The notes beneath the pieces were generated by a model that saw only the letters and a list, made by a program, of their open reading frames with translations, did no database searches and was not told the DNA's origin. This document shows, piece after piece, positions 13,386-22,429 of a stretch of DNA of 30,114 nucleotides; position 1 is the first letter of the stretch, and each line of letters starts with the position of its first letter. Both the position numbers and the translations under genes were made by a program. This DNA is from Synechococcus sp. (GTDB lineage: Bacteria; Cyanobacteriota; Cyanobacteriia; Thermostichales; PCC-7336): contig JBFRWD010000122.1 in assembly GCA_051439425.1 (NCBI GenBank), forward strand, positions 1 through 30,114, in the 5' to 3' direction.

Positions 13386-15047
13386 ATGCAAACCTGTCAC
13401 TGTCTCAATCCTGACTGCCAGCAACCCCACAACCCCAAGGATGCCAAACGGTGCGGTACCTGTGGGAGTGCTTTACTGTTGCGGGGTCGGTATCGTGCCT
13501 ATAAGCGTTTGGGGCAGGGGGGGTTCGGGACGACATTTTTGGCGCGCGATCTCGATATGCCCTCTCAGCCGTGGCGTGTGATCAAGCAACTGCGGGTGGC
13601 TGAAGCCTCCGAGCAGGTGGCTCAGCTTTCTAAAGAACTGTTTATGCGAGAGGCCCAGGTTCTGGAGAAGCTGGGGGAGCACTCTCAAATTCCTACCCTG
13701 TACGCCTATTTCGGAGAGGATAACCGCTTTTATCTGGTGCAGGAATTTGTGCTAGGCACGACCCTCTCGAGTGAAGCTCACCGCAATGGAGCCTTTAACG
13801 GCGAGCAAATTCAGCAGGTGCTACGAGAAGTCTCGCTGATTCTTAGCTACGTTCACAGCAAGAACACCGTTCACAGAGATATCAAACCGGCCAACTTGAT
13901 TCGTCGTAAAGATGACGGTCGTCTGGTGTTGATCGACTTTGGTGCGGTGAAGCAAATGGGCATTGCCGGTATGGAAGAGATGCCGTCGTCCGTGACAGCG
14001 ATACGATCGCTAGGATTCTCCCCCCCCGAGCAAATGGCCGGTCATTCTGTCGGTCCTGCCAGCGATTTGTATGCATTAGCTGCTACGTGTATCAATCTGC
14101 TGACGCGCAAATCTCCCAATCGTTTTTTCGACTCCAAGCGTAACTGTTGGACCTGGCAGGATGAAGTGGAGTTAGACGAGCGCCTGACCGGTATTCTGGA
14201 ACGGATGCTGCACCCTACCATGTCGGAGCGCTATGAAAGTGCGACGGCAGTTCTGCGCAGTTTGCAAGAATCCACCAGCATTGGCATGGGGGCTGGTTCC
14301 CGGCTGCACTCTGAGGCTACGGCGGCCCAGTCAACGGTGGCAGCGGGCACAAATCCTATTTCGCGCAATTGGTCGTATCGGGTCGGAGATACTGGATTTA
14401 CTCCGATCTCGCCATATCGACAGGAGCAACCGAGGGCCCGTTCAGCCGTTATCAATCCTGCTTTACCCAGTCGCGATCGCACCAGTCATACCCGTCCCGC
14501 ATCTGCTGATGTTCGCTCGGCCCCCAATCGGCCTGCGTCTAGTCCTTCCTCGTCGATGGAAGGTGCGGATCTGAGCAATCGCAATATGGCAAAGGAAAAC
14601 TTAGCCGGAGTCAATTTGCGTAAGACCAACTTATCGGGCACTAACCTGTCTGGAGCAGACTTACGAGGTGCGGATCTGCGTGGAGCCTCGTTTACCGGTC
14701 CTCCCCCCAAGTGGCGATTCGTGCTGGCAAGAGTTCTTTGGATGATGCGCAACCTAGCAGGTATGTTAGCTGGTGTCCTCTGCTTGGTGTTAGCCGTTGC
14801 TGCGGCTGGATGGGGCATTTACAAACTGACCGGTAATTTGTGGTTGGGAGCAATTGGCGGTTTGTTGGCAGCAATTTGGTCGGGATGGTACGTCTGGCAA
14901 TTCACAGAGCGCCGTTTGGATACGGCTATCATGGTGGCTGACAGCCCGCAACGTCACACACTGTTCAAAGGTGCTGACCTGCGTAAGGCAAAGCTTGACA
15001 GTGGTTTGAGGGCCCATGCCAGGCGGCAGGGGGCTCGACTGAGCTAA
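13386..15047 (+). CDS. Ser/Thr protein kinase with 4-Cys prefix, pentapeptide repeats and two TM helices
   Basis: CLNPDC...[37 protein letters not shown](D/N)LxxxNL repeats; hydrophobic hairpin near the C-terminus. Confidence 0.95.
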
Positions 15048-15067
15048 GAGAACTGGTGACTGTTGGA

Positions 15068-15877
15068 TCAGATGCGGACGGGAATTTGGCGATCGCGCAT
15101 GGCTGCTTTAATCTCGCTGACTGAAAGCTGTCCAAAGTGCAGGAGAGATGCTAACAGTGCTGCTTCTGCCTTGCCATCTATCAATGCATCGCAAATATGG
15201 TCCGTGTTACCCGCTCCGCCCGATGCAATCACCGGAATTTGCACGGCCTCAGCGACACGACGAGTGAGTTCTAGATCGTATCCAGCCTGGGTTCCGTCAG
15301 CATCCATGCTAGTGAGCAAAATCTCTCCCGCTCCGCGGGATGCCATTTCTTTTGCCCATGCAATGGCATCGATCCCTGTTGCGTCTCTGCCGCCCCGAAC
15401 ATACACTTCCCATTCAGCTTCGGTCCCTAGCTGGTTATTCGACAGGTTTGAGGTATGACTTTGCGGTGATGTTGACTTTCGACGGGCGTCGATTGCCACT
15501 ACGATACATTGCTGTCCAAATAGAGCACTAGCCTCGCTGACCAAGTCAGGAGTACGGACAGCGGCGGAATTCATACTGACCTTATCGGCCCCAGCGCGTA
15601 ACAGATCGCGAATATTCTCGACAGTGCGTACCCCACCGCCTACCGTGAGTGGGATGAAAACTTGCTCGGCAGTACGCTGCACCACGTCATAGATGATGCC
15701 ACGATCTTCATGGGTGGCTGTGATGTCCAAAAACACCAGCTCGTCAGCCCCAGCTTCGTTGTACGCTCGGGCGAGCTCAACCGGATCGCCTGCATCAACA
15801 AGATTGACAAAATTGACTCCCTTCACGACCCGACCGGCATTGACATCGAGACAGGGGAGGATGCGTTTGGCTAGCAC
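15068..15877 (-). CDS. hisF: Imidazole glycerol phosphate synthase cyclase subunit HisF
   Basis: (M)[44 protein letters not shown] and PVIASGGAG motifs. GTG 15877 chosen as start; contains a ~15-aa polar insertion after DARR. Confidence 0.97.
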
Positions 15878-16057
15878 GAATACTGGTTTGAGCGCGATGC
15901 TTCGAGTGTTACATATCCAGGTTATGTCAGGAGCAATTGTTGTCTTGAGTCTTCCTGAATGCATGAAGAAATGCTTTATGGGGGAAGCTCGTGCCTCACT
16001 TTGCCTCAGAGTCAGTGAGAATGCGTAGAATCATGGGTCTCCACGCAGGATACTGGC

Positions 16058-16086
16058 TTGACGATCCGAGATTGGCTGACTAAGGT
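16058..16086 (+). promoter_or_regulatory. Sigma70-type promoter for the DAHP synthase leader
   Basis: TTGACG (16058-16063), 17-nt spacer, TAAGGT (16081-16086). Confidence 0.6.
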
Positions 16087-16156
16087 TTATCAATAAGAGT
16101 GCTTGGCGTATTGGTCTTCAGGATGTCAGGCATCAGCTTATATAGGATTTCAGAAC

Positions 16157-16204
16157 ATGCAATCGACTCGATTTAGTTTTTGGTTTACCCAGGGGTGCAC
16201 TTGA
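16157..16204 (+). CDS. Candidate leader peptide 1, MQSTRFSFWFTQGCT* (Phe/Trp control codons)
   Basis: AGGA at 16144-16147; 4 aromatic codons in 5 (16172-16186); stop lies inside the antiterminator 5' arm. Confidence 0.75.
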   Translation: MQSTRFSFWFTQGCT

Positions 16205-16243
16205 CCGTCAACTGCTCCAATGTGTTCAGCGTCAAGTGACCCC
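16192..16243 (+). promoter_or_regulatory. Antiterminator hairpin of attenuator 1
   Basis: GGGGT-g-CACTTGAC (16192-16205) is complementary to GTCAAGTG-ACCCC (16231-16243), 13 bp with one bulge, and overlaps the terminator 5' arm. Confidence 0.7.
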
Positions 16244-16275
16244 CCCGCAAGTGATACGCGAGGGGGTTTCTATTT
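16239..16275 (+). terminator. Intrinsic terminator of attenuator 1
   Basis: ACCCCC-c-CGC [AAGTGATAC] GCG-a-GGGGGT followed by TTCTATTT. Confidence 0.7.
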
Positions 16276-16290
16276 GGGAATCTCTGCACC

Positions 16291-16464
16291 ATGACTATTG
16301 CCTATTCGATTTTGACCGATAGAAACAATCATCTAGGTTTGATGGGGCTATCCAGAGTGGTTGTTTGTTTTGAATGTGCGATGCGTCGCGCCAGCTTTTG
16401 CCCATCGCACATATGGCAATGGTTTTGCACCTTTATGTTTTGGTTCGGACAGTCGTCCGGGTAG
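16291..16464 (+). CDS. Candidate leader peptide 2 (57 aa; in-frame ATGs also at 16342, 16381, 16435) ending ...IWQWFCTFMFWFGQSSG*
   Basis: Open frame from ATG 16291, just after terminator 1, to TAG 16462-16464; 7 Trp/Phe codons in 11 (16414-16446); stop inside the antiterminator 5' arm. True start uncertain. Confidence 0.7.
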   Translation: MTIAYSILTDRNNHLGLMGLSRVVVCFECAMRRASFCPSHIWQWFCTFMFWFGQSSG

Positions 16465-16493
16465 ACCGTTGCACTTGCAAGCCTTCTGCCCGG
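16445..16493 (+). promoter_or_regulatory. Pause (1:2) and antiterminator (2:3) hairpins of attenuator 2
   Basis: 1:2 is TCGGAC[AGTC]GTCCGG (16445-16460). 2:3 is CCGGGTAGA (16457-16465) with TCTGCCCGG (16485-16493), 9 bp including one G-U. Confidence 0.75.
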
Positions 16494-16516
16494 TACCGCT
16501 AGGTCCGGGCCTTTTT
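16488..16516 (+). terminator. Intrinsic terminator (3:4) of attenuator 2
   Basis: GCCCGG-t-ACC[GCTA]GGT-CCGGGC followed by CTTTTTGTT, ~30 nt before the DAHP synthase ATG. Confidence 0.8.
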
Positions 16517-16547
16517 GTTGTTAGTAACTTTTCTGGAGAGTCAACCC

Positions 16548-17417
16548 ATGAATTCAGCGAAATTGGTCTGTAAATCTTCCCCCAAGCAAACCACTAGCAT
16601 CATTACTATTGGCGATCGCCTCGCTATTGGCGGTAGCGATATCGTCATCATGGCTGGCCCCTGTACGATCGAAAGCGAGCAGCAAATGGAAACTGTTGCA
16701 CGACATTTGGCACCGTCGCCAATCGGGATGCTGCGGGGGGGAGCCTACAAGCCCCGCACCTCTCCCTATAGTTTTCAGGGCTTGGGGCCGCAAGGTCTCG
16801 ACATCATTGCCAATGTCGGACGTACTTACAATCTCCCGGTTGTGACTGAAGTTATGGCAGTAGAGCAGATCCCGCTGGTGAGCGATCGCGCGGACATGTT
16901 GCAGGTGGGTAGCCGTAACATGCAAAACTTTGACCTACTCAAAGCCGTCGGTCAGAGCGATCGACCCGTTCTCCTTAAACGCGGGCTGGCCGCAACTCTA
17001 GAAGAATTCGTCATGGCGGCTGAGTACATTCTCAGCTATGGAAACCCAAACGTCGTGTTGTGCGAGCGGGGCATTCGCAGTTTTGATTCGTACACGCGAA
17101 ATGTCTTGGACCTGGGCGCAGTTGTAGCGTTAAAGCAGCTTGTCCACCTGCCAGTCATTGTCGATCCGTCACATGCATCGGGACGCCGAGAGCTGGTAGC
17201 CGATCTAGCGCGGGCGGCTATCGCTTGCGGTGCTGATGGGCTGATGATCGAGTGCCATCCCACTCCCGAACTCTCCGTGTCAGATGCTGCCCAAGCCTTG
17301 TCCTTGGATGCTGCTGTGAATCTTGCAGAAAGTTTGCGACCGATTGCCGCAGCTGTAGGTCGTAGCTTAGCTACTGGGCGATCGCTCGCACCATTAGGTG
17401 AACTTGCCCGCACCTGA
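16548..17417 (+). CDS. aroF: DAHP synthase, type I-beta, catalytic domain only (289 aa)
   Basis: IMAGPCTIES, RGGAYKPRTSPYSFQGLG, QVGSRNMQNF, LCERGIR and VDPSH motifs. GGAGAG SD before ATG 16548; only ~30 residues precede the AGPC motif. Confidence 0.95.
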   Translation: MNSAKLVCKSSPKQTTSIITIGDRLAIGGSDIVIMAGPCTIESEQQMETVARHLAPSPIGMLRGGAYKPRTSPYSFQGLGPQGLDIIANVGRTYNLPVVTEVMAVEQIPLVSDRADMLQVGSRNMQNFDLLKAVGQSDRPVLLKRGLAATLEEFVMAAEYILSYGNPNVVLCERGIRSFDSYTRNVLDLGAVVALKQLVHLPVIVDPSHASGRRELVADLARAAIACGADGLMIECHPTPELSVSDAAQALSLDAAVNLAESLRPIAAAVGRSLATGRSLAPLGELART

Positions 17418-17648
17418 TTGTGTGAAGTAAATCTCCCTTAGCCCAACTCGTTGCTGGGCATTTCGAGCGTTTACACACTCTGAAATCCGGGTGGCCGTGT
17501 GGTTGATTGATTCAAACCCGTTTTCTCTACTGTCTAATTCAGGTAATGTGGTGCAAAGGTCGATCGCAGTGCGGTTTGGTATTGCCCTCGATCGCGGCAT
17601 TCTGCCAGGTGCCAGTGAGGGAATTTTCGATAGGAGGGTCAGGCAACC

Positions 17649-18743
17649 GTGTCGCGATTCTTATTTGTTGGATCTACGGCTGCGTACAGTGGGAAGTCCG
17701 CCATTATTTTGGGGCTTGCCAGTCACTTGCAACAGCAAGGTATAGCTGTCGCATATGGAAAACCTCTGGGGGCGTGCATGGGGGGAGACTGTTTGCCGGA
17801 TGGCTCCGACCCCGATGTGAAATTTATTGGGGATTGGCTGAGATTACCTCAGGAATGCAAGCTACCCACCATTGCTCGACTCGACTCAGAGACTGTGATG
17901 GAGGCAATTGACGAGACAACTCGCATTGACTATTCTGCGAAGCTGGCAGCGTATCAGCAACAGTGCAGTGCTCAAATCAAGATATTGGAAGGGCCTGGAG
18001 ATTTGCAGGAGGGGCAACTGTTTCAGCTTTCGCTGGCAGACATGGCTACTCGTTTAGATGCTTCCATCTTGTTACTCGTGCGTTACAACTCTGCTGTGGT
18101 AATCGATAACGTATTGGGTGCCCAAAAACTGCTGGGGGATCGACTGATTGGCGTTGTCTTTAATGACGTTTCCCCAGATGAGCGAACAACCGTTACCGAA
18201 CGTGTGGTGCCTTACCTCGAACATCACCACATCCCGGTTTTGGGTATCTTGCCGACCAACCGCATTTTGCGCAGCATTAGCGTTGACGATCTAGTGCATC
18301 AGCTAGGAGCTCAGGTTTTGTGTTGCGAGGATCGTTTGGATCTCTTGGTGGAAGAGATTGCCATCGGTGCCATGAACGTGAACTCAGCATTGAAGTATTT
18401 TCGCAAGTCGGAGCACAAAGCGGTGATCACGGGGGGCGATCGCACCGACATACAATTGGCAGCTCTGGAAACTTCCACTAATTGCCTGATTTTAACCGGT
18501 CAACTGCCGCCAACTGATTTGATTCGTCAGCGGGCTGAAGAACTAGAAATACCTATTTTGTCAGTGGATCTTGACACACTGACAACGGTGGAACGCATTG
18601 AGCGGGTCCTGGGCCAGGCCCGATTGCATGAGGAAGTTAAAGTTCGCTGTATTGAAGAGTTAATCGATCGCGAACTCGATTTCTCCCGTTTATTCGACCT
18701 GCTTGACATCCCCCATCCGCACGAGAAAGTCAAGTCTGCATAA
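17649..18743 (+). CDS. Phosphotransacetylase-N-terminal-like protein (BioD-like P-loop plus DRTGG domain)
   Basis: AYSGKS, YGKP, ILEG, IGAM and ITGGDRTDIQLAALE...LILTG motifs; no PTA catalytic domain. Confidence 0.9.
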   Translation: MSRFLFVGSTAAYSGKSAIILGLASHLQQQGIAVAYGKPLGACMGGDCLPDGSDPDVKFIGDWLRLPQECKLPTIARLDSETVMEAIDETTRIDYSAKLAAYQQQCSAQIKILEGPGDLQEGQLFQLSLADMATRLDASILLLVRYNSAVVIDNVLGAQKLLGDRLIGVVFNDVSPDERTTVTERVVPYLEHHHIPVLGILPTNRILRSISVDDLVHQLGAQVLCCEDRLDLLVEEIAIGAMNVNSALKYFRKSEHKAVITGGDRTDIQLAALETSTNCLILTGQLPPTDLIRQRAEELEIPILSVDLDTLTTVERIERVLGQARLHEEVKVRCIEELIDRELDFSRLFDLLDIPHPHEKVKSA

Positions 18744-21523: not shown

Positions 21524-22429
21524 CTATTCATTGAGCGTTTGGTTGTAGCTAGAGGCTAAGATCTGGGTCCCGCTGCCATCTTTCGTTAACACTTCCAGCA
21601 GCATGGAATGGGGATCGCCGCCATTCAGAATAGTGGCCGAGCCGACGCCCTGAGCTAATGCGCGAATGCAGCATTGCACCTTGGGGATCATGCCGCCTGC
21701 AACCACGCCATCCTCAATCAACTGACGAGCGGTCGGTATATCCATGGCGTCAATTAAGGTGTCGGGATTGTCTTTGTCCCGCAAAATTCCGGGAGTGTCT
21801 GTCAGCAAAATCAGCTTCTCTGCCCCCAGTGCTGCCGCGACCTCTCCGGCGACAGTATCGGCGTTGATGTTGTAGGCCTGTCCGTCATCATCGGCAGCTA
21901 CGCTAGAGATGACGGGGATGTGGCGATCGCCAATCAGTGTTTTCAATAATGTCGGATCGGTGCCGATGACCTCCCCCACAAATCCAATTTCTTCCCGGCC
22001 CTGCGATCGGGCTCGGATCAAATTGCCATCCCGACCGCAGAGCCCCACAGCGGAGCCTCCAGCCAGGTTAATCAGTTGAACGAGTTGTTTGTTAACGCGG
22101 CCAACCAGTACCATTTCCACTACTTCCATCGTGTCCGCATCTGTTACCCGCAGACCATCGACAAACTTGAATGGAATATCGAGTTTTTTCAACCATAGAT
22201 TGATCTCCGGCCCCCCACCGTGCACGATGACTGGACAAATGCCAACACAGGCTAGAAACACCACATCCCGCAGAATTTCGGCTCGGCGCTCCTCGTGTAC
22301 CATCGCTGCTCCGCCGTATTTGATGACGATGGTGCGACCCTGAAACTTTTGAATGTAGGGTAGAGCCTCGCTGAGAATTTGGGCGCGGCTAAGCGGATCG
22401 TAGGTGAGTGGGGAAACGCTGGCGGTCAT
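21524..22429 (-). CDS. argB: Acetylglutamate kinase
   Basis: [37 protein letters not shown] and GGMIPKV motifs; ATG 22429 chosen as start. Confidence 0.97.

Follow-up and report, generated by a model that had tools for sequence, protein, structure and literature searches.

A stretch of 30,114 nucleotides (nt) from Synechococcus sp. (GenBank assembly GCA_051439425.1, contig JBFRWD010000122.1, positions 1 to 30,114), referred to here as the window, carries at positions 16291 to 16516 an element that, judged from its sequence, is very likely the proximal one of two tandem ribosome-mediated transcription attenuators controlling a gene for a type I-beta 3-deoxy-d-arabino-heptulosonate 7-phosphate (DAHP) synthase without an allosteric domain. 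The attenuator probably turns on the first gene of aromatic amino acid synthesis when aromatic amino acids are short. A first-pass annotation, made from the letters of the window, had read the element as a trpL-type attenuator, and its location before the DAHP synthase gene, as identified with Pfam and NF006421, supports this reading. The anatomy of the element, its conservation, its selection for aromatic codons, and its switch geometry are observed in the window and its relatives.

The proximal leader, its proposed RNA switch, and the DAHP synthase gene

The longest version of the proximal leader open reading frame (ORF) comprises 57 codons on the forward strand, from ATG 16291 to the stop codon TAG at 16462 to 16464 (MTIAYSILTDRNNHLGLMGLSRVVVCFECAMRRASFCPSHIWQWFCTFMFWFGQSSG-stop). 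Its ATG lies 15 nt after the T-tract (16267 to 16275) of the upstream terminator 1, so that the long frame directly past this terminator, as first annotated, is borne out. Translation of positions 16414 to 16446 (family positions -16 to -6 from the stop) yields the regulatory codons W-Q-W-F-C-T-F-M-F-W-F, which agrees with the earlier count of 7 Phe/Trp codons in 11; three of them are Trp codons. Such aromatic density is rare: across the six frames of the 4.8-Mb genome, only 58 stop-free stretches of 11 codons contain at least seven aromatic codons, and 7 contain at least seven Phe/Trp codons.

Three alternative helices can be formed by the RNA at and beyond the end of this ORF, all on the forward strand. 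The 1:2 hairpin, UUCGGAC/GUCCGGG, pairs 16444 to 16450 with 16455 to 16461 and folds at -8.3 kcal/mol. The antiterminator 2:3 pairs CCGGGUAGA (16457 to 16465) with UCUGCCCGG (16485 to 16493) in a helix of 9 bp, including one G-U pair, with an apical mini-hairpin at 16470 to 16481, and the whole hairpin folds at -20.2 kcal/mol. The terminator 3:4 (terminator 2), GCCCGG(U)ACC-GCUA-GGUCCGGGC, occupies 16488 to 16510, folds at -17.3 kcal/mol, and is followed by a C, T5 at 16512 to 16516, and GTTGTT to 16522. Sequence reading and folding left the coordinates given in the first-pass annotation for the pause hairpin, antiterminator, terminator, and T5 unchanged. Segment 2 consists of the last three codons plus the stop codon and pairs with the 5' arm of the terminator. 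The last three codons (family consensus AGU UCC GGG) are identical in sequence to the 3' arm of the terminator, and each of the two can pair with CCCGGAACU, the terminator 5' arm. The antiterminator of the window is shifted by a few bases relative to that of the family, and the stop codon itself is used in the pairing.

In folds of the window with 5' context from 16381, masks at F16438, W16441, or F16444 gave the antiterminator with 9/9 pairs, and a mask at the stop codon gave the terminator with 6/6 pairs. The proposal that a ribosome stalled at the F-W-F codons leaves segment 2 free, and that one on the stop codon masks it, is therefore retained. Under the proposed mechanism, an RNA polymerase that has passed attenuator 1 would transcribe the leader ORF, with the Phe/Trp run in its last 16 codons. 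When charged tRNA-Phe and tRNA-Trp are ample, the ribosome would reach TAG 16462 and cover segment 2, segments 3 and 4 would pair, and the terminator with its U-run would then halt transcription 32 nt before the DAHP synthase gene. When the aminoacyl site (A-site) stalls on F16438, W16441, or F16444, the ribosome would cover segment 1 and leave segment 2 free, and the free segment 2 would capture segment 3 before segment 4 is made, so that the polymerase would read into the DAHP synthase gene. We infer that translation of the leader, ribosome stalling, and termination occur in vivo.

The regulated gene (16548 to 17417, forward strand, ATG 16548) encodes a type I-beta DAHP synthase of 289 amino acids and is preceded by the ribosome-binding site GGAGAG at 16535 to 16540. 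Its product matches PF00793 (253 bits; Pfam) and NF006421 (388 bits). The latter match covers profile positions 71 to 336 of 338, and since it starts only at position 71, the enzyme appears to be without the N-terminal regulatory (allosteric) domain.

The gene begins 584 nt past a hisF-like ORF on the minus strand (15068 to 15964), and the interval between them holds two leader ORFs, both with a hairpin and T-run behind them; terminator 2 and its T-run end 32 nt upstream of the DAHP synthase gene. The distal leader ORF (16157 to 16204, forward strand) encodes MQSTRFSFWFTQGCT-stop. Sequence reading and folding place antiterminator 1 at 16192 to 16205 with 16231 to 16243 and terminator 1 at 16240 to 16248 with 16258 to 16266. 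The geometry of the distal attenuator is the same as that of the proximal one, with a Trp codon seven codons before the stop, the stop codon within the 5' arm of the antiterminator, and the antiterminator overlapping the terminator (16240 to 16266), and the distal leader also contains no Tyr codons. A simple promoter and terminator scan of 15800 to 16700 returned no sites; it located no promoter and missed both terminators, which is likely explained by the 9-nt loop and stem mismatch of terminator 1 and the bulge of terminator 2. A look-up of public RNA runs for 15900 to 17400 listed none that cover it.

Conservation of the leader and of the alternative helices

The 80 best of 460 confirmed relatives of the DAHP synthase, drawn from a species-level genome collection and sharing 65 to 72% identity with it, were used to examine the conservation of the element. 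A proximal aromatic leader was found in 78 of the 80 loci, ending about 85 to 355 nt before the DAHP synthase gene. The two loci without it (L022 and L066) hold only 47 and 102 nt of upstream sequence, so the proximal attenuator is present in 78 of 78 related cyanobacterial loci with enough upstream DNA. A distal aromatic leader, with the consensus S-Y-F-Y-F-W-F-x-V-V-H-R-E-stop, was found in 73 of the 75 related loci with 330 nt or more of sequence before the proximal stop. The proximal sequences, 79 with that of the window, were aligned as a family with the consensus tail S-W-F-Y-G-F-Y-F-W-P-R-x-S-S-G-stop, to which the window tail W-Q-W-F-C-T-F-M-F-W-F-G-Q-S-S-G-stop aligns without gaps; the alignment of the window with the family extends over the tail, stop codon, segment 3, segment 4, and U-run. 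The full element was also seen in three loci (L013, L033, and L059) from metagenome-assembled genomes (MAGs) labeled Candidatus Obscuribacter, Sericytochromatia, and Actinomycetota, which could mean either that these MAGs are mis-binned or that the element does occur outside photosynthetic cyanobacteria.

The 79 proximal sequences were used to build a covariance model, which has a single match in the window's own genome (E = 1.4e-10; the window is part of the training alignment) and also matches three genomes of the same genus that are outside the model (E = 1.4e-6 to 5.2e-11), referred to below as G001, G002, and G003. The model matched none of the 26 other genomes searched within the family or order. 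In a sample of 151 genomes of the phylum, 20 were matched at E below 1e-8, the window's own included, and the other 19 matches are full-length; all 20 genomes belong to the class of the window. Genomes of the sample outside this class gave only weak, mostly partial matches, and weak matches in small genomes of the phylum (E = 3e-4 to 1e-2), mostly covering the terminator half, were excluded from the counts. Each of the 26 model-matched loci has a DAHP synthase gene downstream, its start no more than about 130 nt away.

Positions -14, -13, -10, -9, -8, and -7 of the family are aromatic in 75 to 79 of the 79 sequences, and position -12 is aromatic in 64. Phe, Tyr, and Trp substitute for one another at these positions, and in the two Tyr columns the codons TAC and TAT are both used (30/23 and 35/29). 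As read from the alignment, the substitution pattern of the leader is that of a putative coding region under codon-level selection for aromatic residues. An in-frame ATG is present 16 to 25 codons before the stop in 71 of 78 loci, at exactly 20 codons in 46 of them; six further loci have GTG or TTG at 17 to 21 codons, and one has none. In this last locus (L070, a Microcoleus MAG), the proximal frame is open for 20 codons, with no ATG, GTG, or TTG upstream of the aromatic run. The last Gly codon is GGG in 77 of 77 sequences and Ser is encoded by TCC or TCT only, which points to an additional constraint at the RNA level, through pairing, on the last three codons. In G001 (L084, about 1510 to 1540), the leader stops four codons earlier (FWFG-TAG), and CCGUCCGGGUAG of segment 2 follows untranslated, which suggests that the RNA element is retained even where the peptide tail is lost.

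Both of the competing helices are strongly conserved. The terminator helix (8 bp) is paired in 96.8% of 632 cells in the 79 sequences, against at most 69% in slid controls, and both-side changes occur at four of its eight pairs; none of 500 shuffles was as high. RNAalifold predicts this helix unaided and adds a covarying closing pair (A-U in 37 sequences, G-C in 34, G-U in 5, and C-G in 2). The antiterminator helix (9 bp) is paired in 92.5% of 711 cells, against at most 57.5% in slid controls, and shows 10 cells with both-side changes, which none of 500 shuffles reached.

The geometry of the switch was examined by masking 31 nt around the A-site and folding transcripts to just after segment 3, before segment 4; this truncated-transcript folding replaced equilibrium folding of the full transcript, whose results for the window were ambiguous. 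With the A-site at 21 nt before the stop (the last Trp codon) or earlier, all 79 sequences show segment 3 paired to segment 2; at 18 nt before the stop (F16444 in the window), 77 of the 79 still do; and from 15 nt before the stop to the stop itself, segment 3 is free in all 79. The aromatic run thus ends exactly at the last stall position that leaves segment 2 free. In the stretches folded for this analysis, 2:3 is at least as stable as 3:4, both in the window sequence (-21.4 versus -17.3) and by median (-19.6 versus -17.3), and it is the stronger of the two in 57 of 79 sequences.

The first-pass annotation had described a complete switch of 1:2, 2:3, and 3:4 helices. The 2:3 and 3:4 helices are conserved over the 79 sequences, whereas 1:2 is not kept family-wide: 73.5% of its cells are paired, against 73.7% in shuffled sequences, and 66 of 79 sequences carry a central mismatch. 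A proper 1:2 hairpin, UUCGGA-N-UCCGGG, is found in the subtype with F-G after Trp, to which the window, G001, G002, G003, L044, and L074 belong. Six of its pairs are invariant in these six sequences, and a seventh covaries (three C-G, one U-G, and two A-U). The role of 1:2 is uncertain because this helix is not kept across the family and is much weaker than 2:3 (-8.3 versus -20.2). The naked RNA of the window folds in two ways, either as 1:2 plus 3:4 or as a nested 1:4 plus 2:3 helix of -39.2 kcal/mol. Both folds place a GC-rich helix directly before the U-run, and both would be expected from the folding to terminate as well.

Phe/Trp codons, leader length, and other features of the genus

The leaders of the window's genus differ from those of the family in their Tyr codons. 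At proximal positions -12 and -9, Tyr occurs in 53 and 64 of 79 sequences, whereas the window has C and M at these places, G003 has S and M, and G002 has S and C. At distal positions W-4 and W-2, Tyr occurs in 61 and 60 of 73 sequences, and all four genomes of the genus have R and S or N; the window has R and S. Among the leaders elsewhere, 76 of 79 proximal ones and 71 of 73 distal ones retain Tyr. Having no Tyr codons, the sensor of the genus should respond to Phe and Trp only. Both leaders are also free of Tyr in an Elainellaceae MAG (L056), in which Phe is substituted for Tyr; a Tyr-free distal leader only was seen in L001, and a Tyr-free proximal leader only in L048.

The proximal leader of the genus would be 27 to 64 codons long, compared with about 20 elsewhere. 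From the first ATG past terminator 1, the frame has 57 codons in the window, 53 in G003, and 64 in G001 (from its only canonical in-frame start), and in G002 a GTG behind a GAGAGGGA motif gives 29 codons in a stop-closed frame. The distance between the two leader stops is 260 nt in the window, 304 nt in G001 and G003, and 177 nt in G002, and in the family it ranges from 135 to 262 nt, with modes at 146 and 170. The stretch between terminator 1 and the aromatic run cannot be aligned even with that of the nearest relative, G003, with which the tail and switch are 91% identical. The spacer 16276 to 16415 occurs once in the genome and is therefore not a repeat. The genus may thus have reprogrammed a phylum-wide double attenuator to be blind to Tyr, stretched its leader, and gained a true 1:2 hairpin, although we put this forward only tentatively.

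The in-frame ATG codons listed by the first-pass annotation as possible starts (16291, 16342, 16381, and 16435) are all present. Immediately before the aromatic run, positions 16374 to 16412 (forward strand) form a stable hairpin with a 10-bp stem (-17.0 kcal/mol, z = -2.6), matched in stability by 3 of 200 shuffles; ATG 16381 lies in the 5' arm of this hairpin. The RNA around ATG 16291 is unstructured (z = +1.3). We lean toward a long leader, starting at 16291 or 16342, because ATG 16381 is buried in a hairpin and the 16291 region is open. By our inference, 16291 is the leading candidate, with a probability somewhat short of even; 16339/16342 is a distinctly less probable choice, and 16381, buried in the hairpin, and 16435 are both unlikely starts. 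The hairpin at 16374 to 16412 could be a pause site, a translation brake, or an insulator. At the equivalent place in G003, a different 7-bp hairpin (CCACUGC...GCAGUGG) was read by eye.

The window's genome encodes a second DAHP synthase, a type I-alpha enzyme of 358 amino acids (TIGR00034, 495 bits; contig C110, L087, 1372 to 2448). No aromatic leader was seen by eye in the 380 nt upstream of its gene, and a type II DAHP synthase was not found in the genome. The type I-alpha enzyme is present in all three same-genus genomes and in two of the five other attenuator-bearing genomes checked, so that no clear link emerged between the missing Tyr codons and the second DAHP synthase.

A crude scan of the genome for further leader-peptide attenuators (595 terminator-like sites, 22 candidate amino-acid-rich ORF tails, 7 of them inspected) recovered only the element of the window, but the scan is insensitive and missed the window's own distal leader. 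A His-rich candidate on contig C124 (about 22100 to 22306) was rejected, being the C terminus of a 410-codon open frame and not a leader. This frame ends in a His/Gly/Ser repeat (…HSHGHGHSHGH…HHHHNGHHHH), possibly a metal-binding tail, and is followed by a terminator.

Alternative explanations and comparison with known systems

Several observations weigh against the attenuator reading. The 80 loci were chosen as the nearest homologues of a single protein, many come from Nostoc and Microcoleus, and they are not independent. Segment 2 is also coding, so its conservation may lie partly at the peptide level. Covariation is modest because the helices are nearly invariant, and the number of antiterminator pairs with both-side changes (three) was reached by 84 of 500 shuffles. 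No start candidate of the proximal leader has a strong Shine-Dalgarno sequence. When segment 4 is included and a ribosome occupies the Trp codon, 71 of 79 sequences, the window among them, have the terminator as their minimum free energy fold, and the full-transcript fold of the window gave the antiterminator only with longer 5' context. Since equilibrium folding prefers the terminator, the switch would have to be kinetic, with 2:3 forming first and then persisting, as in classical systems. Finally, 2:3 forms in 79 of 79 truncated transcripts without a ribosome, from which it follows that, unlike in trp, 1:2 plus 3:4 would not be the default route to termination for an untranslated leader, unless the nested 1:4 plus 2:3 helix itself terminates.

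A very unlikely alternative is that the leader encodes an arrest peptide, whose nascent tail (FWF/P-G/R-x-S-S-G-stop) would sense free aromatic amino acid in a TnaC/Trp-like manner, so that the ribosome would be held on the stop codon, segment 2 masked, and termination enforced when amino acids are plentiful. Such a peptide would fit both the residues conserved beside the stop (among 79 sequences, Pro at -6 in 59, Ser at -2 in 71, and Gly at -1 in 77) and the weakness of 1:2 in most members, which suggests that the ribosome must stay on the stop codon while about 50 nt more are transcribed. However, the tail codons are fixed at synonymous sites (CCC in 53 of 59, in addition to the invariant GGG and the TCC/TCT choice), as RNA pairing predicts, the SSG codons of G001 are untranslated and segment 2 is nevertheless kept, and the window has F-G-Q where the family has P-R-x. 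It is highly improbable that the switch is independent of translation, with a protein or uncharged tRNA binding the leader RNA as in TRAP or T-box systems and the frame being incidental. Segments 2, 3, and 4 are indeed conserved as RNA, but the Rfam 15 covariance models gave no match at E up to 1 in 14500 to 18500, and a binding site in RNA would leave unexplained the replacement of one aromatic residue by another, the free choice of TAC or TAT at fixed positions, and the constant spacing of the start codon in 71 of 78 loci.

The first-pass annotation had also suggested that the long peptide, with its CFEC and CPSH motifs, has its own function or binds metal. That the element encodes such a functional 57-residue small protein, the terminator merely ending its transcript, is extremely improbable. 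In its favor, an ATG in an unstructured stretch opens a frame of 57 codons, and long frames (53 and 64 codons when counted from the first ATG) also occur in two other genomes of the genus, but the three long peptides share the tail only, and the 29-codon frame of G002 is bounded by a stop. The conserved part of the proximal leader ORF is confined to about its last 16 codons (tail 16414 to 16461). The N-terminal 41 residues had no match in 40 relatives, including the three same-genus genomes (best E = 0.03), and the conservation check proposed earlier, run on the peptide, found the tail conserved and the CFEC and CPSH motifs without counterpart in any relative. The DNA of the N-terminal part does not align within the genus, and a Pfam search of the 57-residue product returned no family. 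A peptide function is not supported, since the part bearing the two motifs is unconserved even within the genus. We give equally little probability to a constitutive terminator or insulator that happens to follow an aromatic-rich frame and has no regulatory role. The empty promoter scan would agree with it, but all 79 aligned sequences keep the frame, stop position, and alternative pairing, with the same gene following in every case, and a constitutive terminator 32 nt before a gene of an essential pathway would silence that gene.

Leader-peptide attenuation requires ribosomes that closely follow RNA polymerase. If the attenuator reading is true, the presence of such an attenuator, conserved and under codon selection, ahead of the shikimate pathway's entry enzyme would be an argument for transcription-translation coupling in cyanobacteria. 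It would also represent a natural sensor of aromatic amino acid supply in a phylum used for the production of aromatic compounds. The removal of Tyr codons from both leaders in one genus, with their retention elsewhere, provides a natural experiment in specificity.

Full-text literature searches, with subscription journals and bioRxiv supplements outside their coverage, found no published description of the element for cyanobacteria. The survey of Korolev et al. 2016 (PMC4833913) speaks of "no reliable data" on whether attenuation operates in cyanobacteria, and the searches found no later report. The closest item found, a preprint (10.64898/2025.12.20.695498), proposes for Synechocystis that Sml0012 is possibly an attenuator peptide of aroQ, a gene different from the DAHP synthase gene of the window.

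Compared with known systems, the element would be a leader-peptide attenuator of a known kind, set apart by genus-specific Phe/Trp-only codons and by the unusual length of its leader. In function it most resembles aroR-aroF of Corynebacterium glutamicum, in which a Phe-Tyr-Phe leader lies upstream of a DAHP synthase gene (Neshat et al. 2014, as cited in PMC11802643). According to PMC11802643, transcription there rises on ribosome stalling under Phe limitation and Tyr has no effect; the likeness is functional and is drawn from this description. C. glutamicum belongs to another phylum and has a single leader, whereas the window has two leaders in series with Phe and Trp codons and no Tyr. Two short ORFs, each thought to control alternative stem-loops, are described for the tandem attenuators of the Salmonella mgtCBR leader in PMC3641672. 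These are separate short ORFs of a virulence operon and not two similar amino acid sensors before a biosynthetic gene.

The textbook attenuators of Escherichia coli, trpL-trpE and pheL-pheA (also mentioned in PMC11802643), resemble that of the window in having a short ORF with codons for the end product, mutually exclusive 1:2, 2:3, and 3:4 helices, an intrinsic terminator with a U-run, and a stop codon beside segment 2. In contrast to these systems, the window has a 2:3 helix (-20.2) that greatly exceeds 1:2 (-8.3) in stability, and 1:2 plus 3:4 is therefore not the predicted default of its untranslated RNA. In addition, the leader of the window is predicted to sense two amino acids (three in the wider family), is arranged in tandem, and is perhaps 27 to 57 codons long. 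Within the cyanobacterial family, the window's genus is set apart by having no Tyr at either conserved position of either leader and by F-G in place of P-R after Trp, a replacement that would give its members a true 1:2 hairpin.

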